Source: Enterobacteria phage P922 | Sequence record: OR999189.1 | DNA: 64,000 nucleotides | Direction: 5' to 3' (one strand) | Part shown: piece after piece, positions 2,874 through 53,943 of the stretch | How positions within the stretch are numbered: position 1 is the stretch's first letter | How the letters are laid out: the number at the start of each line of letters is the position of its first letter | Made by a program: the position numbers and the translations under genes | The notes under the pieces: generated by a model | What the model saw: only the letters and a program-made list of their open reading frames with translations | Database searches by the model: none | Told to the model about the DNA's origin: nothing

Positions 2874-2903
2874 GTTTACATGGGGTTTTAGTTGTGATAC
2901 TAT
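2874..2903 (+). promoter_or_regulatory. T4-type early promoter (near-duplicate of the ipI promoter)
   Basis: GTTTAC 2874-2879, GTGATACTAT -10. Confidence 0.6.
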
Positions 2904-2933
2904 TACCTTATCAAAATTAATTAGGAAAATAAA

Positions 2934-3242
2934 ATGAAAACTTACCAAGAATTTATCAATGAAGCGGCTGCACCAAAGACATTCGTTATTAATACTCAAG
3001 CGAGTCTTGATGATGAGTACGCAGATGCAATTCTGAGGTCACTTGCTAAGAACGGCGTTGAAGTATCTGCATCGGACTTTAAGAAAGGGTCTTCCGAGAT
3101 GTTTATTTCTATAACTAAAGGATCTAAAGCTAAGATTAAATCATCATTCGGAGTTGCTCGTACCGATCAAATCGACAATCATGACTTTAAACAAACTGGT
3201 GCTAAACGGCATAATACGATTGCATCACGCGGAATAAAATAG
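2934..3242 (+). CDS. internal-protein-like with CTS leader MKTYQEFINEA
   Basis: 102 aa; promoter and first codons near-identical to the ipI cassette upstream. Confidence 0.6.
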   Translation: MKTYQEFINEAAAPKTFVINTQASLDDEYADAILRSLAKNGVEVSASDFKKGSSEMFISITKGSKAKIKSSFGVARTDQIDNHDFKQTGAKRHNTIASRGIK

Positions 3243-3253
3243 TTTATAAAACC

Positions 3254-3283
3254 GTTTACTTTTAGATAGGGTAGTGATACTAT
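3254..3283 (+). promoter_or_regulatory. T4-type early promoter
   Basis: GTTTAC ... GTGATACTAT. Confidence 0.55.
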
Positions 3284-3311
3284 TACCCTATCAACTACTG
3301 AGGAGAATAAA

Positions 3312-3497
3312 ATGAAACGTTGTGAATTAATTCGAAATGTTGCTATTGCAATTTCTGCTTCCGCTTTTAGTTTTTCAATGTTTGTTGGATTTATATGTGG
3401 ATTATTGACTACAGCAGAAAATGTTTTTTCACTTGTAGTAGCATTTTTAATTGGTTTAATCGCTATTGTTATGGATAAAATTTCTAAAGGTGAATAA
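3312..3497 (+). CDS. small hydrophobic membrane protein
   Basis: 61 aa ORF, SD GAGGAG upstream, two hydrophobic segments. Confidence 0.4.
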   Translation: MKRCELIRNVAIAISASAFSFSMFVGFICGLLTTAENVFSLVVAFLIGLIAIVMDKISKGE

Positions 3498-3902
3498 ATG
3501 AATATTAACGAATATTATGTTTATGCTGGGGATTATGCAAATCCTTCTCATTTTGAAGGTAATTTAATACCTGATAGAGTTTTTAATACTCCTTTTGAAG
3601 CGTGGAGTTGGGTTGAAAGTAAAAATGGATTTTCTTATCGTTATGTTGAAGTAACTGATTGGAAAGGAACTAAATATCCTAAAGAGCATTATTATGTAGA
3701 CCCATCTAAAGTAAATTTTCTTTTGTTCGCAGGCGATAATTACTATCCTTGCGGTGGATATGATGATTTGATTGCGTATGCTGAAACAGAAGATGAATTA
3801 CGCCAAATTATTGAAGACAATAAATCAAAACGATTTGGCGATAGTTTTGACTGGTGGCAAATCGTAAATGCCCATACACATACTATTGTTGATAAAGGTT
3901 AA
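3498..3902 (+). CDS. hypothetical protein
   Basis: 134 aa ORF, translationally coupled (TAAATG). Confidence 0.5.
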   Translation: MNINEYYVYAGDYANPSHFEGNLIPDRVFNTPFEAWSWVESKNGFSYRYVEVTDWKGTKYPKEHYYVDPSKVNFLLFAGDNYYPCGGYDDLIAYAETEDELRQIIEDNKSKRFGDSFDWWQIVNAHTHTIVDKG

Positions 3903-3904
3903 TA

Positions 3905-4192
3905 ATGATTCTTTATGCGAAAGTATCATCCATTGAAAATGGATATAAATATGATCAAGAAGCAGCTAAAGCCTTGATTGATGATTATGGCATTTTAACA
4001 TGTTTTGAAGTTGAAAAGGTTTACATTGACCGTTCATCTTCTCAAGTTAAATTAGTGAAGGAAGACCGTAAATTTAATACAGTAAATTTTGATTTCTTTA
4101 TTGAAACGGAAAAAGGTCCTCTTGAATATGATATTTTCAAGAATCCTTTGGGTCTTGAATGCATCGTAAATATGTATTATCATAAATGGTAA
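3905..4192 (+). CDS. hypothetical protein
   Basis: 95 aa ORF, coupled start TAATAATG. Confidence 0.45.
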   Translation: MILYAKVSSIENGYKYDQEAAKALIDDYGILTCFEVEKVYIDRSSSQVKLVKEDRKFNTVNFDFFIETEKGPLEYDIFKNPLGLECIVNMYYHKW

Positions 4193-4289
4193 ATATGCTT
4201 TAAGAATTATTTGTTATTATTAACTTATATCGCACTGATTAATACCCTCTATCATCAAGGGTTCTTGTTTGAGAGCCTTTGTTAATAAT

Positions 4290-4362
4290 TGGGAATTAGC
4301 CAAGTTGGTAAGGCACTGGATTTTGATTCCAGGATGCAAAGGTTCGAGTCCTTTATTCCCAG
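4290..4362 (+). tRNA. tRNA-Gln (anticodon UUG)
   Basis: Cloverleaf: acceptor TGGGAAT/ATTCCCA, anticodon loop TTTTGAT, T-arm GGTTCGAGTCC. Confidence 0.85.
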
Positions 4363-4363
4363 C

Positions 4364-4450
4364 GCGAGAATGGTCAAATTGGTAAAGGCACAGCACTTAA
4401 AATGCTGCGGAATGATTTCCTTGTGGGTTCGAGTCCCACTTCTCGCACCA
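4364..4450 (+). tRNA. tRNA-Leu (anticodon UAA), long variable arm, CCA encoded
   Basis: Acceptor GCGAGAA/TTCTCGC, loop CTTAAAA, T-arm GGTTCGAGTCC. Confidence 0.85.
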
Positions 4451-4455
4451 AATTT

Positions 4456-4529
<74 letters not shown>

Positions 4530-4539
4530 ATTTAATTTA

Positions 4540-4612
4540 CTCCGTGTAGCTAGTTTGGTAGAGCGCCTGATTTGGGATCAGGAGGTCCAAGGTTCAAATC
4601 CTTGTATGGAGA
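4540..4612 (+). tRNA. tRNA-Pro (anticodon UGG)
   Basis: Anticodon stem CCTGA/TCAGG with loop TTTGGGA; T-arm GGTTCAAATCC. Confidence 0.75.
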
Positions 4613-4614
4613 CT

Positions 4615-4704
4615 GGAGGCGTGGCAGAGTGGTTTAATGCACCGGTCTTGAAAACCGGCAGTCGCTCCGGCGACTCATAGGTTCAAATCCTATCGCCTCC
4701 GCCA
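4615..4704 (+). tRNA. tRNA-Ser (anticodon UGA), long variable arm
   Basis: Acceptor GGAGGCG/CGCCTCC, loop CTTGAAA, T-arm GGTTCAAATCC, CCA encoded. Confidence 0.85.
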
Positions 4705-4709
4705 GTTTT

Positions 4710-4785
4710 GCTGATTTAGCTCAGTAGGTAGAGCAACTCACTTGTAATGAGAAGGTCGGCGGTTCGATTCCGTTAATCAGCACCA
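4710..4785 (+). tRNA. tRNA-Thr (anticodon UGU)
   Basis: Acceptor GCTGATT/AATCAGC, loop CTTGTAA, T-arm GGTTCGATTCC. Confidence 0.85.
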
Positions 4786-4786
4786 A

Positions 4787-4861
4787 GGCCCTGTAGCTGG
4801 AAGGTTCAAGCAAGCGACTCATAATCGCCAGATGGTGGTTCAATTCCACCCAGGGCCACCA
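4787..4861 (+). tRNA. tRNA-Ile (CAU anticodon, probably lysidine-type) or Met
   Basis: Acceptor GGCCCTG/CAGGGCC, loop CTCATAA, T-arm GGTTCAATTCC. Confidence 0.75.
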
Positions 4862-4870
4862 AATTAATTT

Positions 4871-4957
4871 GGGGAGTTATCCCGTAGAGGTAGCGGTGTG
4901 GACTGTAAATCCATTGTCATTGCGACTCGGGTGGTTCGACTCCATCACTCCCCACCA
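4871..4957 (+). tRNA. tRNA-Tyr (anticodon GUA), long variable arm
   Basis: Acceptor GGGGAGT/ACTCCCC, loop CTGTAAA, T-arm GGTTCGACTCC; not among the eight T4 tRNAs I recall. Confidence 0.75.
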
Positions 4958-4961
4958 ATTT

Positions 4962-5036
4962 GGATGTGTAGCTCAATGGCAGAGCGATCGCCTGTTAAGC
5001 GATTGGTTATAGGTTCGAATCCTATCACGTCCGCCA
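4962..5036 (+). tRNA. tRNA-Asn (anticodon GUU)
   Basis: Anticodon stem ATCGC/GCGAT with loop CTGTTAA; T-arm GGTTCGAATCC. Confidence 0.75.
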
Positions 5037-5040
5037 AATC

Positions 5041-5116
5041 CGAGGCATAGCTCAGAAGGAAGAGCAAGGACCTTCTAAGTCCTAGGTCGTAGGTTCGATC
5101 CCTACTGCCTCGACCA
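5041..5116 (+). tRNA. tRNA-Arg (anticodon UCU)
   Basis: Acceptor CGAGGCA/TGCCTCG, loop CTTCTAA, T-arm GGTTCGATCCC. Confidence 0.85.
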
Positions 5117-5132
5117 ATTAAGTGAGGAAAAT

Positions 5133-5483
5133 ATGAAAGGTAATGTTTATTTAGTAGTTCATGATTTAACATTCTATTTTAATCACAATGACACTGTTAT
5201 TTCTGAACGTGTAATTAATTTACTTTATCAGCATGCAGATTATGTTTATGTCGAAAATGAATACGGTCATTGGCAATTTCTCAAAAATCGTTCATTTGGT
5301 TTAGATGGTTACGAATATTTTGAACGTAAAGATCTTTTAGATAAAATTCCGTTATCTACACAATATCAAAATCACAAGTCTTTATATAAATGCCGCCCAA
5401 TTCGAAATGCTGAATCTGCATATGAAGCGATTGATTTATGGCGTAAACGCCGTGAACAAATTGATGCTTTAAAAGAATATTAA
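5133..5483 (+). CDS. hypothetical protein
   Basis: 116 aa ORF with SD GAGGAAAATATG right after tRNA-Arg. Confidence 0.5.
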   Translation: MKGNVYLVVHDLTFYFNHNDTVISERVINLLYQHADYVYVENEYGHWQFLKNRSFGLDGYEYFERKDLLDKIPLSTQYQNHKSLYKCRPIRNAESAYEAIDLWRKRREQIDALKEY

Positions 5484-38675: not shown

Positions 38676-39878
38676 ATGAAAGTATGTATTTTTATGGCTC
38701 GAGGTCTTGAAGGTTGTGGTGTAACTAAATTTTCTCTTGAGCAGCGTGATTGGTTTATTAAAAATGGTCATGAAGTAACTTTGGTTTATGCTAAAGATAA
38801 ATCATTTACTCGTAATTGCGCGCATGATTATAAGTCATTTTCAATTCCGGTTTTATTGGCAAAAGAATACGATAAAACGCTTAAGCTGGTAAATGATTGT
38901 GATATTCTAGTTATCAATTCAGTTCCTGCTACTTCAGTCGAAGAAGACACAATTAATAACTATAAAAAAATTATTGATAACATTAAACCTTCGGTTCGTG
39001 TTGTAGTTTATCAGCATGACCATTCTTCTCTTTCTTTGCGTCGAAATTTGGGATTAGAAGAAACTGTTCGTCGAGCTGATGTTATTTTTAGCCATTCTGA
39101 TAATGGTGACTTTAATAAAGTTTTGATGAAAGAATGGTATCCGGAAACTGTTTCTTTGTTTGATGATATTGAAGAAGCACCGACCGTATATAACTTTCAG
39201 CCTCCTATGGATATTGCGAAGGTTCGATCAACCTACTGGAAAGATGTTTCTGAAATTAACATGAATATCAACCGTTGGATTGGTCGTACTACTACATGGA
39301 AAGGCTTTTATCAGATGTTTGATTTTCATGAAAAACATCTTAAACCTGCAGGACTAAGTACTATTATGGAAGGTCTGGAACGTTCTCCAGCATTTATTCC
39401 TATTAAAGAAAAAGGAATTCCATACGAGTATTATCGTCTTCATCAAGTAGACCAAATTAAAATTGCTCCTAATTTGCCAACGCAAATTCTCGACCGTTAT
39501 GTAAATAGCGAAATGCTTGAACGCATGAGTAAATCCGGATTTGGTTATCAGCTGAGTAAATTAGATAAAAAATATCTACAGCGTTCTTTAGAATATACTC
39601 ATCTCGAGCTTGGTGCATGCGGAACAATTCCAGTATTTTGGAAATCTACTGGCGAAAATTTAAAATTCCGTGTTGATAATACTCCGTTAATTTCTCATGA
39701 TAGCGGTATCGTTTGGTTTGATGAAAATGACATGGAATCAACATTTGAACGTATTAAAGAACTGTCATCTGACCGAGCTCTTTATGACCGTGAGCGAGAA
39801 AAAGCGTATGAATTTTTGTATCAACATCAAGATTCAAGCTTCTGCTTTAAAGAACAGTTTGACATTATTACAAAATAA
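38676..39878 (+). CDS. agt: DNA alpha-glucosyltransferase (HMC glucosylation)
   Basis: 400 aa; matches recalled T4 alpha-gt length and N-terminus. Confidence 0.85.
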   Translation: MKVCIFMARGLEGCGVTKFSLEQRDWFIKNGHEVTLVYAKDKSFTRNCAHDYKSFSIPVLLAKEYDKTLKLVNDCDILVINSVPATSVEEDTINNYKKIIDNIKPSVRVVVYQHDHSSLSLRRNLGLEETVRRADVIFSHSDNGDFNKVLMKEWYPETVSLFDDIEEAPTVYNFQPPMDIAKVRSTYWKDVSEINMNINRWIGRTTTWKGFYQMFDFHEKHLKPAGLSTIMEGLERSPAFIPIKEKGIPYEYYRLHQVDQIKIAPNLPTQILDRYVNSEMLERMSKSGFGYQLSKLDKKYLQRSLEYTHLELGACGTIPVFWKSTGENLKFRVDNTPLISHDSGIVWFDENDMESTFERIKELSSDRALYDREREKAYEFLYQHQDSSFCFKEQFDIITK

Positions 39879-47433: not shown

Positions 47434-50130
47434 ATGAAAGAATTTTATATCTCTATCGAAACAGTCGGAAATAATATTGTTGAGCGTTATATTGATGAAA
47501 ACGGAAAGGAACGTACTCGTGAAGTAGAATATCTTCCGACTATGTTTAGGCATTGTAAGGAAGAGTCAAAGTACAAAGACATTTACGGTAAAAATTGCGC
47601 TCCTCAAAAATTTCCATCAATGAAAGATGCACGAGATTGGATGAAACGAATGGAAGACATCGGTCTCGAAGCTCTTGGTATGAACGATTTTAAACTCGCT
47701 TATATCAGTGATACATATGGTTCAGAAATTGTTTATGACCGAAAATTTGTTCGTGTAGCTAACTGCGACATTGAGGTTACTGGTGATAAATTTCCTGACC
47801 CAATGAAAGCAGAATATGAAATTGATGCTATCACTCATTATGATTCAATTGACGACCGTTTTTACGTCTTTGATTTGTTGAATTCAATGTACGGTTCAGT
47901 ATCAAAATGGGATGCAAAGTTAGCTGCTAAGCTTGACTGTGAAGGTGGTGATGAAGTTCCTCAAGAAATTCTTGACCGAGTAATTTATATGCCATTCGAT
48001 AATGAGCGTGATATGCTCATGGAATATATTAATCTCTGGGAACAGAAACGACCTGCTATTTTTACTGGTTGGAATATTGAGGGATTTGACGTTCCGTATA
48101 TCATGAATCGTGTTAAAATGGTTCTCGGTGAACGCAGTATGAAACGTTTCTCTCCAATCGGTCGAGTAAAATCTAAATTAATTCAAAATATGTACGGTAG
48201 CAAAGAAATTTATTCTATTGATGGCGTATCTATTCTTGATTATTTAGATTTGTACAAGAAATTCGCATTTACTAATTTGCCATCGTTCTCTTTGGAATCA
48301 GTTGCTCAACATGAAACCAAAAAAGGTAAATTACCGTACGATGGTCCTATTAATAAACTTCGTGAGACTAATCATCAACGATACATTAGTTATAACATTA
48401 TTGACGTAGAATCAGTTCAAGCAATTGATAAAATTCGTGGGTTTATCGATCTAGTTTTAAGTATGTCTTATTACGCTAAAATGCCTTTTTCTGGTGTAAT
48501 GAGTCCTATTAAAACTTGGGATGCTATTATTTTTAACTCACTGAAAGGTGAACATAAGGTTATTCCTCAACAAGGTTCGCACGTTAAACAGAGTTTTCCA
48601 GGTGCATTTGTGTTTGAACCTAAACCGATTGCTCGTCGATACATTATGAGTTTTGACTTGACGTCTCTGTATCCTAGCATTATTCGTCAGGTTAACATTA
48701 GTCCTGAGACTATTCGTGGGCAGTTTAAAGTTCATCCAATTCATGAATATATCGCAGGAACAGCTCCTAAGCCAAGTGATGAATATTCTTGTTCTCCGAA
48801 TGGATGGATGTATGATAAGCATCAAGAAGGTATCATTCCAAAGGAAATCGCTAAAGTATTTTTCCAACGTAAAGATTGGAAAAAGAAAATGTTCGCTGAA
48901 GAAATGAATGCCGAAGCTATTAAAAAGATTATTATGAAAGGTGCAGGGTCTTGTTCAACTAAACCAGAAGTTGAACGATATGTTAAGTTCAATGATGATT
49001 TCTTAAATGAACTATCAAATTATACTGAATCTGTTCTTAATAGTCTGATCGAAGAATGCGAAAAAGCTGCTACACTTGCTAACACAAATCAGCTGAACCG
49101 TAAAATTCTTATTAACAGTCTTTATGGTGCTCTTGGTAATATTCATTTCCGTTACTATGATTTGCGAAATGCTACTGCTATCACAATTTTCGGTCAAGTT
49201 GGTATTCAGTGGATTGCTCGTAAAATTAATGAGTATCTAAATAAAGTGTGTGGAACTGATGGTGAAGATTTCATCGCCGCGGGTGATACTGATTCGGTAT
49301 ATGTTTGTGTAGATAAAGTTATTGAAAAAGTAGGTCTTGACCGCTTTAAAGAACAAAATGATTTAGTTGAATTCATGAATCAGTTTGGTAAGAAAAAGAT
49401 GGAACCTATGATTGATGTTGCATATCGTGAGTTATGTGATTATATGAATAACCGCGAGCATCTGATGCATATGGACCGTGAAGCTATTTCTTGCCCTCCG
49501 CTTGGTTCAAAGGGCGTTGGTGGATTTTGGAAAGCGAAAAAACGTTATGCTCTGAACGTTTATGATATGGAAGATAAGCGATTTGCTGAACCACATCTAA
49601 AAATCATGGGTATGGAAACTCAGCAGAGTTCAACACCAAAAGCAGTACAAGAAGCTCTCGAAGAAAGTATTCGTCGTATTCTTCAGGAAGGCGAAGAGTC
49701 TGTCCAAGAATACTATAAGAACTTTGAGAAAGAATACCGTCAACTTGACTATAAAGTTATTGCTGAAGTAAAAACCGCGAACGATATAGCGAAATATGAT
49801 GATAAAGGTTGGCCAGGGTTTAAATGCCCGTTCCATATTCGTGGTGTACTAACTTATCGTCGAGCTGTTAGTGGTTTAGGTGTAGCTCCAATTTTGGATG
49901 GAAATAAGGTAATGGTTCTTCCATTACGTGAGGGAAATCCATTTGGTGACAAGTGTATTGCTTGGCCGTCGGGCACAGAACTTCCAAAAGAAATTCGTTC
50001 TGATGTACTGTCTTGGATTGACTACTCAACTTTGTTCCAAAAATCGTTTGTTAAACCGCTTGCGGGCATGTGTGAATCGGCAGGTATGGACTATGAGGAA
50101 AAAGCTTCGTTAGACTTCCTGTTTGGCTGA
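47434..50130 (+). CDS. 43: DNA polymerase gp43 (family B)
   Basis: 898 aa; exonuclease and polymerase motifs (YGDTDS at GDTDSVYV). Confidence 0.95.
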   Translation: MKEFYISIETVGNNIVERYIDENGKERTREVEYLPTMFRHCKEESKYKDIYGKNCAPQKFPSMKDARDWMKRMEDIGLEALGMNDFKLAYISDTYGSEIVYDRKFVRVANCDIEVTGDKFPDPMKAEYEIDAITHYDSIDDRFYVFDLLNSMYGSVSKWDAKLAAKLDCEGGDEVPQEILDRVIYMPFDNERDMLMEYINLWEQKRPAIFTGWNIEGFDVPYIMNRVKMVLGERSMKRFSPIGRVKSKLIQNMYGSKEIYSIDGVSILDYLDLYKKFAFTNLPSFSLESVAQHETKKGKLPYDGPINKLRETNHQRYISYNIIDVESVQAIDKIRGFIDLVLSMSYYAKMPFSGVMSPIKTWDAIIFNSLKGEHKVIPQQGSHVKQSFPGAFVFEPKPIARRYIMSFDLTSLYPSIIRQVNISPETIRGQFKVHPIHEYIAGTAPKPSDEYSCSPNGWMYDKHQEGIIPKEIAKVFFQRKDWKKKMFAEEMNAEAIKKIIMKGAGSCSTKPEVERYVKFNDDFLNELSNYTESVLNSLIEECEKAATLANTNQLNRKILINSLYGALGNIHFRYYDLRNATAITIFGQVGIQWIARKINEYLNKVCGTDGEDFIAAGDTDSVYVCVDKVIEKVGLDRFKEQNDLVEFMNQFGKKKMEPMIDVAYRELCDYMNNREHLMHMDREAISCPPLGSKGVGGFWKAKKRYALNVYDMEDKRFAEPHLKIMGMETQQSSTPKAVQEALEESIRRILQEGEESVQEYYKNFEKEYRQLDYKVIAEVKTANDIAKYDDKGWPGFKCPFHIRGVLTYRRAVSGLGVAPILDGNKVMVLPLREGNPFGDKCIAWPSGTELPKEIRSDVLSWIDYSTLFQKSFVKPLAGMCESAGMDYEEKASLDFLFG

Positions 50131-50142
50131 TAGAATAAATCT

Positions 50143-50165
50143 AGGGACCTCCGGGTCCCTTTTTC
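50143..50165 (+). terminator. intrinsic terminator after gene 43
   Basis: AGGGACC-TCCG-GGTCCCT + TTTTTC. Confidence 0.65.
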
Positions 50166-50247
50166 ATACAAGTAATATAAATCTATACTTAGGAAAAATA
50201 GATGATTCTGGACCTCTGGAATTCATTAAAAAATTTTTCACAAAACT

Positions 50248-50278
50248 GTTTACATCCCGGTTCCTTTGTGGTACTATA
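50248..50278 (+). promoter_or_regulatory. T4-type early promoter
   Basis: TTTTTCACAAAACTGTTTACA ... TGTGGTACTATAC. Confidence 0.6.
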
Positions 50279-50311
50279 CAACTATCAACTGATGCGGATT
50301 TGGAGAATGAA

Positions 50312-50692
50312 ATGAAAATCGCTATTTTGGTTATTGCATTGGGTCTTACTGGTTGTGTAGCTCAAGGACCAGTAGTAAATCAGTCTGATGTAGGAAAAAT
50401 TGTAAACTGTTCAAGCAAATTTTATAATCCTAACGTCAAGTGTTATAAAGAGGCTCCAAAACAGACAGTAGAACAAATGCAGGCGAATTTTGACGAAGCT
50501 ATTCGTCCAGATGAATCTGCACAAGCATATCGTAATTCAGATGTGATTACGCGTGAAGAAAAAATTGAAAACTACTGTGCTGAACTTTGGGCAAATTGGG
50601 CTAATAATTACCAATGGCGTACTGGTAAAAATGCTCCGATGGAGTATGTAGTAAATTCTTATAATTCATGTGTAAAAAATTTGACTAAGTGA
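50312..50692 (+). CDS. lipoprotein (signal peptide with lipobox LTGC)
   Basis: ATG 50312 after GGAGAATGAA; MKIAILVIALGLTGCVAQ. Confidence 0.5.
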   Translation: MKIAILVIALGLTGCVAQGPVVNQSDVGKIVNCSSKFYNPNVKCYKEAPKQTVEQMQANFDEAIRPDESAQAYRNSDVITREEKIENYCAELWANWANNYQWRTGKNAPMEYVVNSYNSCVKNLTK

Positions 50693-50699
50693 GGAAAAC

Positions 50700-50951
50700 A
50701 TGGAAACTTTAGTAGCAGGTTCAATTTTTATGGTTTTAGTTTCAGGCGTGTTGGCTATTATTATATACATGCTTCCGTGGTTCATCGCCTTGATGCGTGG
50801 GTCAAAATCGACAGTAGGAATCTTTTTCACGTCTTTACTGTTTAACTGGTCAATTATTGGTTGGTTTATTACCTTTATTTGGTCAATTGCGGGTGAAACT
50901 AAAAAATCTGTACAGCAAAATCAAGTAATTATCATCAGAGAGAAGGAATGA
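50700..50951 (+). CDS. imm: superinfection immunity membrane protein Imm
   Basis: 83 aa with two TM helices; T4 Imm size, between genes 43 and 42. Confidence 0.8.
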   Translation: METLVAGSIFMVLVSGVLAIIIYMLPWFIALMRGSKSTVGIFFTSLLFNWSIIGWFITFIWSIAGETKKSVQQNQVIIIREKE

Positions 50952-51097
50952 AAAGCAAAATTTTAGCAGTATTGCTTTTAATCTTGATGATTATAATAAG
51001 TATATACTATAGCGTAACAGTTCCTTGTATGATTCCAACGCTTATTATAGGGTGGAGTTTATTACTGTTACAAGTTAAATATGAATGCATCAATTGA
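50948..51097 (+). CDS. small hydrophobic membrane peptide (below the ORF-track cutoff)
   Basis: ATG overlapping the imm stop (ATGA); 49 aa. Confidence 0.3.
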   Translation: MKSKILAVLLLILMIIISIYYSVTVPCMIPTLIIGWSLLLLQVKYECIN

Positions 51098-51104
51098 GGT
51101 TTAA

Positions 51105-51845
51105 ATGATTAACGATTATATGACAGTTGAAGAAATCCGTCTTGATTTGGGTCTTGCATTAAAGGAAAAAGATTTCGTAATTGATAAAACCGGTGTTAAA
51201 ACTATTGAAATTATTGGTGCATCATTTGTAGCAGATGAACCTTTTATTTTTGGCGCTCTTAATGATGAATACATTCAGCGTGAACTTGAATGGTATAAGT
51301 CTCAAAGTTTGTTTGTTAAAGATATTCCAGGTGAAACACCAAAGATTTGGCAGCAGGTAGCATCTTCTAAAGGCGAAATTAACTCGAATTATGGTTGGGC
51401 CATCTGGTCAGAAGATAACTATGCCCAATATGATATGTGTTTAGCTGAACTTGGTCAAAATCCTGATTCTCGACGTGGTATCATGATTTATACTCGTCCA
51501 TCCATGCAGTTTGACTACAATAAAGATGGCATGTCAGATTTCATGTGTACGAATACAGTACAGTATCTGATTCGTGATAAGAAAGTCAATGCAGTAGTAA
51601 GCATGCGTTCAAATGACGTGGTCTTCGGATTCCGTAATGATTATGCATGGCAAAAATACGTACTAGATAAATTAGTATCTGATTTGAATGCAGGTGATTC
51701 AATTCGTCAGTATAAAGCAGGTTCCATTATATGGAATGTCGGAAGCCTTCATGTGTATTCCCGTCATTTTTATTTGGTTGACCATTGGTGGAAAACTGGC
51801 GAAACTCATATTGCGAAAAAAGATTATAACGGTGAGTGGAAATGA
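51105..51845 (+). CDS. 42: dCMP hydroxymethylase gp42
   Basis: 246 aa; near-identical to recalled T4 gp42. Confidence 0.95.
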   Translation: MINDYMTVEEIRLDLGLALKEKDFVIDKTGVKTIEIIGASFVADEPFIFGALNDEYIQRELEWYKSQSLFVKDIPGETPKIWQQVASSKGEINSNYGWAIWSEDNYAQYDMCLAELGQNPDSRRGIMIYTRPSMQFDYNKDGMSDFMCTNTVQYLIRDKKVNAVVSMRSNDVVFGFRNDYAWQKYVLDKLVSDLNAGDSIRQYKAGSIIWNVGSLHVYSRHFYLVDHWWKTGETHIAKKDYNGEWK

Positions 51846-52684
51846 TTCAATTCGTAATTCCAAGTTATCAACGCGTAGGGGCAGTTTCTGCCCTTGATAT
51901 GTTTCCATCTGATTATGAACCTCATATTGTAGTACGTAAACACGAAGAAAAAGCTTATTATGATGCTTATGGGTCTAGAGCTAAAATTATAACTATTCCT
52001 GATGATGTTAATGGAATTGCTGGTACTCGTAAAGCAATTACTGATATGTATGCAGGCCAACGAATCTGGATGATTGATGATGATACTACTATTCGTATGA
52101 GTTCAATGCGAAAGAAAGATGATCGTCGTTGCGTAGATAAAATTAATCAATTAACTCGTGAACAGTTCTATGAATTGATTCAATACGTTGAAGATGCCAT
52201 GGATTGTGGGTATTATCACGGTCATGCTCGTCTACCTATTTTTAAAATTACTTCATCTTGGGGTAATTATCGTGAAAATTCATATGGATTCACGAATACC
52301 TGGTATGACCTCGGAAAACTTACAACAGAACAAATTGGGTATGGAAAAATTGATTTATGCGAAGATATGTATGCATTTCTCAATTTAATTAATCAAGGTT
52401 ATCCGCATTTGGCCTTGTTCAAATATCTGGTTGTATCTGGAAAAGCACAAGCTCCAGGCGGATGTAGCTCAATTCGTAGTAATTCTAAACATAATAGAGC
52501 TCTTGAGCAAATCAATAGAGAGTTTCCAGAGCAAGCTCGTTGGAAAACATCGAATATTGAAAAGAGAAAATCGTTGGGTGAAGAAGACGAGCCATTAAAG
52601 GTTCTTCGCATGTGTGTTTCGCGCAAAGAAAAATCAGAAGCGTTTCATAAGTTTAATGCTATTCATCCAATAGCAGTTGATTAA
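51836..52684 (+). CDS. GT-A fold (GT2-like) glycosyltransferase at the T4 beta-gt position
   Basis: 282 aa; VIPSYQR start and IWMIDDDTTI (DxD) motif; differs from the 351 aa T4 beta-gt I recall. Confidence 0.55.
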   Translation: MEMIQFVIPSYQRVGAVSALDMFPSDYEPHIVVRKHEEKAYYDAYGSRAKIITIPDDVNGIAGTRKAITDMYAGQRIWMIDDDTTIRMSSMRKKDDRRCVDKINQLTREQFYELIQYVEDAMDCGYYHGHARLPIFKITSSWGNYRENSYGFTNTWYDLGKLTTEQIGYGKIDLCEDMYAFLNLINQGYPHLALFKYLVVSGKAQAPGGCSSIRSNSKHNRALEQINREFPEQARWKTSNIEKRKSLGEEDEPLKVLRMCVSRKEKSEAFHKFNAIHPIAVD

Positions 52685-52761
52685 TGCCTAAATTTATTGT
52701 GTTATAATTACTCTATCTTTAACCAGTGAGGAAAATATAATGATGCCTATGGAAAAAATGA

Positions 52762-53943
52762 ATGTCTATTGCAGATTTAAAATCCCGTTTGATTAAAGCT
52801 TCCACTTCTAAAATGACTGCTGAACTGACTACATCTAAATTCTTTAATGAAAAGGATGTAATCCGTACAAAAATCCCAATGCTTAATATCGCTATTTCCG
52901 GTGCGATTGATGGTGGAATGCAGTCTGGTTTAACCATTTTTGCAGGTCCTTCTAAACACTTTAAATCAAATATGTCTTTGACTATGGTTGCGGCGTATTT
53001 GAACAAATATCCTGACGCGGTATGTTTATTCTATGATAGCGAATTTGGTATTACTCCAGCTTATTTGCGATCCATGGGAGTTGACCCGGAACGAGTAATT
53101 CATACACCAATTCAGTCAGTTGAACAGCTGAAAATTGATATGGTGAATCAGCTTGAAGCTATTGAGCGCGGTGAAAAAGTTATTGTATTCATCGACTCAA
53201 TCGGTAATATGGCTTCTAAGAAAGAAACGGAAGATGCCTTGAATGAAAAATCTGTGGCAGATATGACTCGTGCTAAATCACTGAAGTCATTATTCCGTAT
53301 TGTTACTCCTTATTTTAGTATTAAAAACATTCCATGTGTTGCGGTTAACCATACAATTGAAACAATTGAAATGTTTAGTAAAACCGTGATGACAGGTGGT
53401 ACAGGCGTAATGTATTCGGCTGATACTGTATTCATTATCGGTAAGCGCCAGATTAAAGATGGTTCTGATCTTCAGGGGTATCAATTTGTTCTAAATGTAG
53501 AAAAATCTCGTACTGTTAAAGAAAAAAGTAAATTCTTTATTGATGTTAAATTTGACGGTGGTATCGATCCTTATTCTGGATTGTTAGATATGGCTCTTGA
53601 ATTAGGATTTGTAGTAAAACCTAAAAATGGTTGGTATGCTCGTGAATTTCTTGACGAAGAAACCGGTGAGATGATTCGCGAAGAAAAATCTTGGCGTGCA
53701 AAAGATACCAATTGCACTACATTCTGGGGTCCTTTATTTAAGCATCAACCATTCCGAGATGCTATTAAACGTGCTTATCAGTTAGGTGCTATTGATAGTA
53801 ATGAAATTGTTGAAGCTGAAGTCGATGAATTGATTAACTCAAAGGTTGAAAAATTTAAATCTCCAGAAAGTAAAAGTAAATCAGCAGCTGATTTAGAAAC
53901 TGACCTAGATCAGTTAAGTGATATGGAAGAATTTAATGAATAA
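52762..53943 (+). CDS. uvsX: RecA-like recombinase UvsX
   Basis: 393 aa; Walker A GPSKHFKS; matches recalled T4 UvsX. Confidence 0.95.
   Translation: MSIADLKSRLIKASTSKMTAELTTSKFFNEKDVIRTKIPMLNIAISGAIDGGMQSGLTIFAGPSKHFKSNMSLTMVAAYLNKYPDAVCLFYDSEFGITPAYLRSMGVDPERVIHTPIQSVEQLKIDMVNQLEAIERGEKVIVFIDSIGNMASKKETEDALNEKSVADMTRAKSLKSLFRIVTPYFSIKNIPCVAVNHTIETIEMFSKTVMTGGTGVMYSADTVFIIGKRQIKDGSDLQGYQFVLNVEKSRTVKEKSKFFIDVKFDGGIDPYSGLLDMALELGFVVKPKNGWYAREFLDEETGEMIREEKSWRAKDTNCTTFWGPLFKHQPFRDAIKRAYQLGAIDSNEIVEAEVDELINSKVEKFKSPESKSKSAADLETDLDQLSDMEEFNE

Follow-up and report, generated by a model that had tools for sequence, protein, structure and literature searches.

Enterobacteria phage P922 very probably encodes an intact T2/T6-type beta-glucosyl-HMC-alpha-glucosyltransferase between gene 42 and uvsX

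Phage T4 carries beta-gt between gene 42 and uvsX, and the earlier note on Enterobacteria phage P922 (sequence record OR999189.1) had described a different, GT-A type glycosyltransferase in the same slot. The locus raises the question of which enzyme is encoded there and which sugar pattern it would give to the phage DNA. We examined a stretch of 64,000 nucleotides of this record (hereafter the window). The length of 351 aa given for T4 beta-gt was confirmed; the description of the T4 slot was right about beta-gt and left out segA, which adjoins it there.

Locus and reading frame

The ORF list gives an 849-nt open frame at 51836 to 52684 on the plus strand, 282 aa counted from a GTG, between gene 42 and uvsX, exactly as had been described. 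The features of the locus are as follows.

51105..51845, plus strand: gene 42, dCMP hydroxymethylase (PF00303, E = 1.2e-15; named gene 42 in homologous records)
51836..51841, plus strand: GTG-GAA extension of the 282-aa version, probably untranslated as part of ba-gt
51842..51845, plus strand: ATGA, in which the start codon of ba-gt overlaps the TGA stop of gene 42, read directly from the sequence
51842..52684, plus strand: coding sequence of ba-gt (ggt, TAGT), 280 aa and a TAA stop, based on the ORF, PHROG 842, PF20691 and phage SF2-1
52685..52761, plus strand: spacer of 77 nt between ba-gt and uvsX, without T4 homology; T4 has segA here
52762..53943, plus strand: uvsX recombinase (PF21134/PF00154), the downstream neighbour of ba-gt

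We confirmed that the ORF is real and far above chance, because a frame of this length stays open in DNA of 35% GC and has hundreds of conserved full-length homologs. From the sequence context, its start is likely the ATG at 51842 (280 aa) rather than the GTG at 51836 (282 aa). The ATG is the CDS start in the near-identical annotated records of SF2-1, T2, CP, EL, and LH2, and GGTGAG sits 5 to 6 nt 5' of it; when the sequence was read, no Shine-Dalgarno-like sequence was found ahead of the GTG, and bases 51836 to 51841 code, in another frame, for C-terminal residues of gp42. The 282 aa reported earlier thus describe the ORF but probably not the protein, and the two codons added by the GTG start are simply the product of the longest mechanical ORF.

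Gene 42, the upstream partner transcribed in the same direction, makes the 5hmC precursor, and the ATGA overlap suggests that gene 42 and ba-gt may be translationally coupled. The order gene 42, ba-gt, uvsX is also found in T2, T6, CP, EL, Geo, and RB32. The spacer holds TGCCTA (52685–52690) followed after 12 nt by TATAAT (52703–52708), which we take to resemble a T4 middle (MotA-type) promoter. The sigma-70 scan of 50900 to 53000, which returned 12 promoter-like sites against 10.3 expected, did not flag this pair, and a terminator scan of the same interval returned one terminator-like hairpin against 0.9 expected; this hairpin (51876–51896) lies inside the ba-gt coding sequence and is probably due to chance.

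Identity of the protein

The ORF very probably encodes the beta-glucosyl-HMC-alpha-glucosyltransferase of T2 and T6 (ba-gt, ggt, or g-gt; TET-associated glycosyltransferase, TAGT, PF20691) as an intact ortholog. The protein scored 38.3 bits against PF20691 (gathering score 27.5), with residues 5 to 209 on profile positions 2 to 205 of 205, and matched PHROG 842, beta-glucosyl-HMC-alpha-glucosyltransferase, over its full length (E = 7e-89; profile positions 3 to 269 of 270). At the nucleotide level, the gene is 100% identical to that of Shigella phage SF2-1, which bears the name of this enzyme. The alignment to the T2 and T6 proteins proposed in the earlier note gave about 97% amino acid identity to both (97.5% to T2 AP018813 by tblastn), with differences at 6 of 280 residues from T2 and 8 of 280 from T6; the protein of the Durham phage CP differs at 5. 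Family, length of 280 aa, slot, and alpha-GT partner are all shared with T2 and T6. Three conservative substitutions (T23S, E33K, and R92K) are private to the window protein against five compared phages, and none lies at a conserved column.

No family was matched in a scan of the protein against NCBIfam, and the Pfam scan gave no match to PF00535 (Glycos_transf_2) at E ≤ 1, which argues for TAGT as a sister family and not a member of GT2. The T6 TAGT has likewise been placed as sister to GT2 and modelled as GT-A (PMC13216743). The TAGT family has many and diverse members, which form 342 clusters at 50% identity. TAGTs of T4-like phages of Klebsiella, Enterobacter, Salmonella, and Serratia have the same length as the window protein and are more diverged from it (47–65% identical); their genes adjoin dCMP hydroxymethylase in the records listed.

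Predicted fold and conserved residues

An AlphaFold2 model of the protein (pLDDT 81.3, pTM 0.83), with low-confidence loops at residues 132 to 149 and 202 to 206, predicts a GT-A fold with a single Rossmann-like domain, as does the AF3 model that has been published for the T6 TAGT (PMC13216743). The best 50 Foldseek matches in the PDB were GT-A glycosyltransferases, mostly recognised GT2 enzymes, and included RmlT (8bz4), TarP (6h4m), TarS (5tz8), K4CP (2z86), WrtF (9omm), and AvpGT (9jn3), with best figures of probability 1.00, E about 2.5e-6, and TM about 0.5. The model and these matches bear out the GT-A/GT2-like fold suggested earlier. TarP, TarS, RmlT, and K4CP, which are bacterial inverting GT2 enzymes, resembled the model with probability 1.00, E of ~1e-5 to 1e-6, and TM of ~0.4 to 0.5. 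Like it, they have a nucleotide-binding strand at the N-terminus, a motif of the DxD type, and an acidic residue within an ED-like motif. However, their sequence identity to the window protein is only 10 to 15%, so that the resemblance is structural, and their acceptors are teichoic acid or polysaccharide instead of a sugar on a DNA base. A PDB search with the protein sequence gave only chance matches (E of at least 0.76) and no solved structure of the family; the residue roles proposed here therefore rest on the model and on analogy.

51872..51874, plus strand: Arg11 codon CGC, invariant in 70 of 70 sequences of alignment A2, intact in the window, His in T2
52076..52084, plus strand: DDD (DxD-type) motif, Asp79–81, (GAT)3, codons 79 to 81 of the 280-aa protein
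52364..52366, plus strand: Asp175 of the 'CED' motif, invariant in alignments A1 and A2, candidate catalytic base

The DDD motif, already pointed out in the earlier note, is conserved: it is invariant in alignment A1 (10 homologs), and in alignment A2 (70 sequences) it has an invariant D80 between D79 and D81, each conserved at 90% or more. R11, D80, D175, and G207 are invariant across the 70 family members of A2, down to ~20% identity. The window protein keeps Q10, R11, DDD79–81, D175, and G206/G207 in an uninterrupted frame. By analogy with the inverting GT2 enzymes, its structural relatives, Asp175 is likely to be the catalytic base.

The classical laboratory stocks of the T-even phages T2 and T6 each carry their own ba-gt lesion, and the examined field isolates carry none. 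R11H occurs in T2 alone, at the family-invariant Arg, with codon CAT where its neighbour RB32 has CGT; the T6 sequence MH550421 has an amber at codon 10, and T6 AP018814 has lost one Asp of the DDD motif. The window gene, by contrast, keeps Arg11 and has neither the amber codon nor the DDD-to-DD deletion of the two sequenced T6 stocks. The lesions in laboratory stocks against clean field isolates hint that phages grown on laboratory hosts may do without the second glucosylation or pay a cost for it. A scan of IMG/VR gave only five near-identical loci, too few for allele frequencies, all with R11 and DDD intact. The original sequencing paper is reportedly that of Winkler and Rueger, from 1993; a literature search found no prior report of T2 R11H or of a hypomorphic T2 ba-gt, and earlier priority is possible.

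DNA sugar pathway and predicted modification

38676..39878, plus strand: alpha-gt, DNA alpha-glucosyltransferase (PF11440, E = 5e-236; PHROG 2888, E = 9e-222)

The alpha-gt that had been noted at these positions is present, and it differs from the alpha-gt of CP and T2 by 4 to 5 aa. In the proposed pathway, gp42 would make 5-hydroxymethyl-dCMP, which the phage polymerase would insert in place of C, and alpha-GT would add an alpha-linked glucose to 5hmC in duplex DNA, thereby forming the acceptor of ba-gt. The latter would transfer a second glucose from UDP-glucose to the 6-OH of the first in beta-1,6 linkage, giving gentiobiosyl-5hmC. We infer that ba-gt acts as a metal-dependent, GT2-like inverting transferase of the GT-A type, in which the N-terminal IPSYxR (with Arg11) and DDD79–81 would bind UDP-glucose and a divalent cation and Asp175 would serve as the base. 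In T6, the second glucose shields the DNA in vitro from two enzymes that act on alpha-glucosyl-5hmC, the glycosylase Brig1 and the glucosidase BapA. T6 delta-ba-gt loses gentiobiosyl-5hmC, and Brig1 then acts on its DNA in vitro (PMC11078745); BapA did not deglucosylate T6 DNA but acted on T6 delta-g-gt DNA (bioRxiv 10.64898/2026.02.25.707755). Publications already cover the gene and its fold, the synteny with T4 beta-gt, and gentiobiosyl-5hmC as the product, the T6 deletion mutant included.

From its gene content, which includes no beta-GT, the phage is predicted to have 5hmC, alpha-glucosyl-5hmC, and gentiobiosyl-5hmC in its DNA and no beta-glucosyl-5hmC. In Durham Tequatrovirus phages with alpha-GT and TAGT, HPLC/MS detected alpha-glucosyl- and gentiobiosyl-5hmC and no beta-glucosyl-5hmC (PMC13390438). 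The T2/T6-like sugar pattern suggested in the earlier note is a prediction that follows from the literature (PMC11078745, PMC13390438, PMC13216743), but the term masks a large gap, since gentiobiosyl-5hmC is reported at about 5% in T2 and about 72% in T6. CP DNA has about one-third 5hmC and about two-thirds gentiobiosyl-5hmC (PMC13390438), and an intermediate 1:2:2 ratio has been reported for EL and Geo. For the window phage, a T6/CP-like composition, with some two-thirds gentiobiosyl-5hmC and one-third bare 5hmC, would be expected, because no conserved residue is changed and the nearest phage with characterised DNA chemistry is rich in gentiobiosyl-5hmC. Such proportions are not reliably readable from sequence, given that T2 (~5%) and CP (~67%) contrast in gentiobiosylation despite near-identical genes, with three residues differing in ba-gt and three in alpha-gt. 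The alpha-gt alleles were considered as the source of the sugar ratio and rejected: they form two groups, ~35 aa apart, with T2 and CP in one and T6 and EL/Geo in the other, and these groups do not track the reported ratios.

R11H affects one of the four invariant TAGT residues and could therefore underlie the low gentiobiosylation of T2. That this single change in the T2 lineage caused the difference, known for 60 years, between ~5% in T2 and ~70% in T6-like phages is a tentative and somewhat doubtful explanation, albeit one that offers a cheap and testable account of the T2/T6 difference. If true, the ba-gt genotype would predict the sugar pattern, and intact R11 and DDD, as in the window, would mean gentiobiosyl-rich DNA; the identity of the window gene is the same either way.

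The lesions in T2 and T6, together with gentiobiosyl contents from 5% to 72% reported among phages with nearly identical genes, would also accommodate an inactive or strongly attenuated enzyme in the window phage, a state that T2 and the sequenced T6 stocks may show, and T2-like DNA with mostly alpha-glucosyl-5hmC. We consider this very improbable, as the frame is unbroken, Q10, R11, DDD, D175, and G206/G207 are all intact, and the closest allele is that of CP, whose DNA is about two-thirds gentiobiosylated (PMC13390438). It is highly improbable that the window TAGT uses another donor sugar or another acceptor than the T2/T6 enzyme. The diversity of the family (the 342 clusters), the many phages that have a solitary TAGT of unknown specificity or a TAGT paired with beta-GT (PMC13216743), and the three private substitutions speak for a different specificity, whereas only 5 to 8 of 280 residues differ from T2, T6, and CP, none at a conserved column, the needed alpha-GT partner is present, and phages with equally similar proteins have been chemically shown to carry gentiobiosyl-5hmC (PMC13390438).

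With alpha-GT, an intact ba-gt, and no beta-GT, gentiobiosyl-rich DNA thus remains the predicted state of the window phage. Recent studies report that DNA of this kind is protected in vitro from excision by Brig1 and deglucosylation by BapA and is still cleaved by GmrSD/BrxU-type enzymes, and that a gentiobiosyl phage is Brig1-sensitive in vivo before the second glucose arrives. These properties are relevant to the choice of Tequatrovirus phages for therapy where the host has modification-dependent defences. For the window itself they carry little weight: ba-gt is a textbook part of T-even hypermodification and is mostly well named in GenBank.

Distribution and history of the slot

The ba-gt layout was found in 479 phage records, most of which carry the ba-gt name, and T4-type beta-gt in 29. 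Most sequenced Tequatrovirus phages have ba-gt here, with T4 as the exception, and the gene looks unusual in this slot only because T4 served as the reference.

The reading of the window protein as an ordinary or diverged ortholog of T4 beta-gt (GT-B, PF09198) that beta-glucosylates bare 5hmC, which the earlier note had named as contrary to its proposal, can be rejected with near certainty: only the position speaks for it, since T4 beta-gt also lies between gene 42 and uvsX, besides the swapping of the names ba-gt and beta-gt in some GenBank records, whereas the alignment showed no relation (best blastp E = 3.4, over 8 residues), PF09198 matched T4 beta-gt at E = 9e-98 and the window protein not at all at E ≤ 1, the model is single-domain GT-A and not two-domain GT-B, and nucleotide homology to T4 ends at 51827 and restarts at 52774. 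By tblastn, T4 beta-gt was absent from the whole 64-kb window (E ≤ 10), and no copy of beta-gt or segA was found elsewhere in it. T4 beta-gt (PDB 1JG7) is like ba-gt in lying downstream of gene 42 in the 5hmC hypermodification pathway, in using UDP-glucose, and in forming a beta linkage to sugars or bases of the phage DNA. The two are nevertheless unrelated in sequence and fold (GT-B against GT-A), and their acceptors are bare 5hmC and alpha-glucosyl-5hmC, respectively.

52662..52686, plus strand: last 8 codons and stop of ba-gt, 25 nt, 24 of 25 identical in T4 directly upstream of segA

This 25-nt island is the sole T4 homology between 51827 and 52774 (blastn E = 9e-6 and 5e-7), and the junction sequences of the window, LH2, and T4 were set side by side at it. 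Intermediate phages with the order 42, ba-gt, segA, uvsX exist, and in nine segA-bearing ba-gt records the match to T4 begins precisely at the island. From this comparison, the 25 nt upstream of segA in T4 are a scar of the ba-gt 3' end; the scar and the ba-gt–segA intermediates together give a concrete history for the beta-gt swap in T4. The window uvsX is the segA-less allele, with the N-terminus MSIADLK as against MSDLK in T4 and LH2, and is about 88% identical in nucleotides to uvsX of those two phages.

Identity of the glucosyltransferase gene between gene 42 and uvsX

The open frame between gene 42 and uvsX had been reported in an earlier note as encoding a 282-aa GT-A fold glycosyltransferase at 51836-52684. 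The frame is present as described (plus strand, GTG start), but 282 aa is only the longest mechanical ORF. The protein most likely has 280 amino acid residues, because the CDS begins at ATG 51842 in the near-identical annotated records of SF2-1, T2, CP, EL, LH2, and RB32, this ATG (51842-51844) overlaps the TGA stop of gene 42 (51843-51845), and it is preceded, at 5-6 nt, by GGTGAG. The genes concerned are listed below.

Glucosyltransferase genes and neighbors of ba-gt
38676-39878: alpha-gt (PF11440, E = 5e-236)
51105-51845: gene 42, dCMP hydroxymethylase (PF00303, thymidylate-synthase family), upstream neighbor of ba-gt
51842-52684, plus strand: ba-gt, beta-glucosyl-HMC-alpha-glucosyltransferase
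52762-53943: uvsX (PF21134 and PF00154), downstream neighbor of ba-gt

PHROG 842 (beta-glucosyl-HMC-alpha-glucosyltransferase) aligns to the protein over its whole length with an E-value of 7e-89, and the protein scores 38.3 bits against Pfam PF20691, TET-associated glycosyltransferase (TAGT; gathering score 27.5). It differs from the T2 enzyme at 6 of 280 residues, from that of T6 at 8, and from that of Durham phage CP at 5, and its gene is 100% identical in DNA sequence to that of Shigella phage SF2-1. These alignments and matches indicate that the slot holds the T2/T6 enzyme. Altogether, 479 phage records match ba-gt, most of them under the same enzyme name; remoter homologs (47-65% identity) adjoin dCMP hydroxymethylase in T4-like phages of Klebsiella, Enterobacter, Salmonella, and Serratia, and 342 family clusters were found at E ≤ 0.001 among 1.84 billion representative proteins searched. 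An ordinary ortholog of T4 beta-gt, which is the 351-aa slot enzyme of T4 as noted earlier (PF09198, E = 9e-98), was ruled out: the window protein showed no similarity to it (best blastp E = 3.4), and tblastn of T4 beta-gt over the whole 64-kb window gave no match at E ≤ 10. Nucleotide homology to T4 breaks off close to the gene 42 end, at 51827, and restarts close to the uvsX start, at 52774. One terminator-like hairpin (51876-51896, plus strand, 9-bp stem with 5 GC pairs) lies within the 5′ end of the ba-gt CDS; it is probably due to chance, since shuffles of the scanned region gave an expectation of 0.9.

The observation in the earlier note is thus confirmed and its interpretation supported; the gene identity and arrangement are correct but already known. 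The position of TAGT has been stated outright to be syntenic with T4 beta-GT (PMC13390438), and alpha-GT plus TAGT is the common pairing, T4's alpha-GT plus beta-GT being the rare one (PMC13216743). Record counts agree with this rarity: T4-type beta-gt occurs in 29 phage records (25 full length, most T4 stocks) versus 479 with ba-gt. The presence of ba-gt in the slot therefore appears unusual only if T4 is taken as the reference. The T4 scar with its intermediates, the T2 substitution R11H, and the lesions in T6 stocks, described below, are minor but testable additions.

Predicted fold and conserved residues

Published modelling of the T6 TAGT gave a GT-A fold that is sister to GT2 (PMC13216743). 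Our AlphaFold2 model of the window protein, built on a 10-sequence alignment, had a mean pLDDT of 81.3 and a pTM of 0.83, with disordered loops at 132-149 and 202-206. The top 50 Foldseek matches in the PDB were all GT-A glycosyltransferases, mostly recognized GT2 enzymes, including RmlT, TarP, TarS, chondroitin polymerase K4CP, WrtF, and AvpGT (probability 1.00, E ~2.5e-6 to 1e-4, TM ~0.4-0.5, sequence identity 10-15%). The DDD motif is Asp79-81, encoded by GAT GAT GAT at 52076-52084. In an alignment of 70 sequences, down to ~20% identity, only R11, D80, D175, and G207 were invariant, and I6, P7, R63, D79, D81, G186, G206, R212, and P229 were at least 90% conserved; the window protein retains all of these residues. 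The GT2-like start and DxD motif proposed from the sequence hold, given the structural matches and the conserved residues. The known beta linkage is consistent, by established glycosyltransferase mechanism, with an inverting GT-A enzyme using UDP-alpha-glucose.

Alleles and predicted sugar pattern

T2 and T6 are without beta-GT, and their alpha-GT and ba-gt enzymes make beta-1,6-glucosyl-alpha-glucosyl (gentiobiosyl) 5hmC; T2 DNA carries ~70% alpha-glucosyl, 5% gentiobiosyl, and ~25% bare 5hmC, and T6 DNA ~3%, 72%, and ~25%, respectively (PMC11078745, PMC6024577). A "T2/T6-like" pattern therefore spans two very different sugar patterns. In ten Tequatrovirus isolates that have both alpha-GT and TAGT, HPLC/MS detected 5hmC and its alpha-glucosyl and gentiobiosyl forms but no beta-glucosyl form (PMC13390438). 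Without ba-gt, the glucosylated form in T6 is alpha-glucosyl-5hmC only, and Brig1, a glycosylase, can degrade the DNA in vitro (PMC11078745); the deletion also turns T6 DNA into a substrate of the BapA glucosidase (bioRxiv 10.64898/2026.02.25.707755).

The alpha-gt gene reported earlier is indeed present in the window. Its alleles form two groups ~35 aa apart, window, CP, and T2 versus T6, EL, and Geo, which track neither the ba-gt alleles nor the reported sugar ratios; this discordance between alleles implies recombination between the two glucosyltransferase loci. T2 differs from gentiobiosyl-rich CP only at R11H, A30V, and P251S in ba-gt and at three residues in alpha-gt. Codon 11 is CAT (His) in T2 and CGT (Arg) in RB32, the nearest neighbor checked; the exact T2 sequence with CAT occurs in eight T2-lineage records only (seven labelled T2, plus SV76), and the window (51872-51874) and all other phages checked encode Arg. 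Because R11 is one of four family-invariant residues and T2 and CP differ so little, R11H may plausibly cause the low gentiobiosylation of T2 (5% versus ~70% in T6-like phages). No prior report of this explanation was found in a literature search of incomplete coverage.

Two independent T6 genome records also carry ba-gt lesions, each a different one, which may reflect either mutation of laboratory stocks or errors in sequencing. In MH550421, codon 10 is an amber TAG (comparison locus L004, 7951-7953, minus strand), and the 261-aa "ggt" is annotated as starting at the internal Met20; in AP018814, an in-frame deletion has removed one GAT of the (GAT)3 encoding DDD (locus L010, ~1264-1269). The window gene has neither of these lesions nor R11H, its closest allele among the five phages compared is that of CP, and its private substitutions T23S, E33K, and R92K all fall at variable columns. 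On the absence of the T2 and T6 lesions and the closeness to CP, we predict with moderate confidence that the phage DNA contains ~2/3 gentiobiosyl-5hmC and ~1/3 5hmC.

History of the slot

In T4, beta-gt is followed by ~137 nt and then segA, a GIY-YIG homing endonuclease gene (PF01541) located between beta-gt and uvsX, whose product cuts within uvsX (PMC2988022). The 25 nt that immediately precede segA in T4 are identical at 24 of 25 positions to window 52662-52686, which comprises the last eight ba-gt codons and the stop codon (E = 9e-6 and 5e-7; T4 locus L003, 2863-2887; LH2 locus L018, 1801-1825). Nine records, including ESh36, LH2, Manna, PD112, and CE1, match the T4 segA segment from exactly this stretch onward, and their upstream gene is ba-gt. 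In LH2, the full-length ba-gt product differs from that of the window at 3 aa, and SegA is identical in amino acid sequence to that of T4.

States of the slot between gene 42 and uvsX
Window type: 42, ba-gt, 77-nt spacer, uvsX
LH2 type (at least nine phage records): 42, ba-gt, segA, uvsX
T4 type: 42, beta-gt, ba-gt scar, segA, uvsX

Since a 3′ scar of ba-gt remains upstream of segA, the sequences suggest a derived origin for the T4 arrangement: in a genome already carrying segA, beta-gt would have taken the place of ba-gt except for its last 25 nt. segA was not found anywhere in the window. The alleles of uvsX differ according to whether segA is present: UvsX begins with MSDLK in T4 and LH2 and with MSIADLK, two codons longer, in the window (52762-52790), whose uvsX has ~88% nucleotide identity to that of T4 and LH2. 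Such co-variation would be expected from SegA-driven co-conversion of flanking sequence.

The ba-gt locus is a mobile-element hotspot in relatives. In HY03, an additional ORF of 642 nt separates gene 42 from ba-gt (locus L017, 1337-1978), and a homing endonuclease gene splits uvsX into two annotated pieces (2895-5380); a "site-specific intron-like DNA endonuclease" is annotated next to ba-gt in JK23 and WL-3. None of these elements is present in the window.

Annotation errors and a neighboring gene

GenBank label errors at ba-gt and beta-gt could mislead. The T4-type beta-gt of RB55, RB59, and 236Ecol005PP is labelled "beta-glucosyl-HMC-alpha-glucosyl-transferase," and the ba-gt of phage teqskov "putative beta-glucosyltransferase." Many product names in the T2 record AP018813 are wrong, such as "N-acetylmuramoyl-L-alanine amidase" for alpha-gt and "major capsid protein" for the gp41 helicase. 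In the window, the mechanical ORF at 50123-50692 (plus strand, TTG start, 189 aa) probably contains a real gene of 126 aa at ~50312-50692, upstream of imm (50700-50951). Its product begins MKIAILVIALGLTGC, a lipoprotein-type signal with Cys, and is the counterpart of the "immunity protein"/Imm.1 in SF2-1 and T6.
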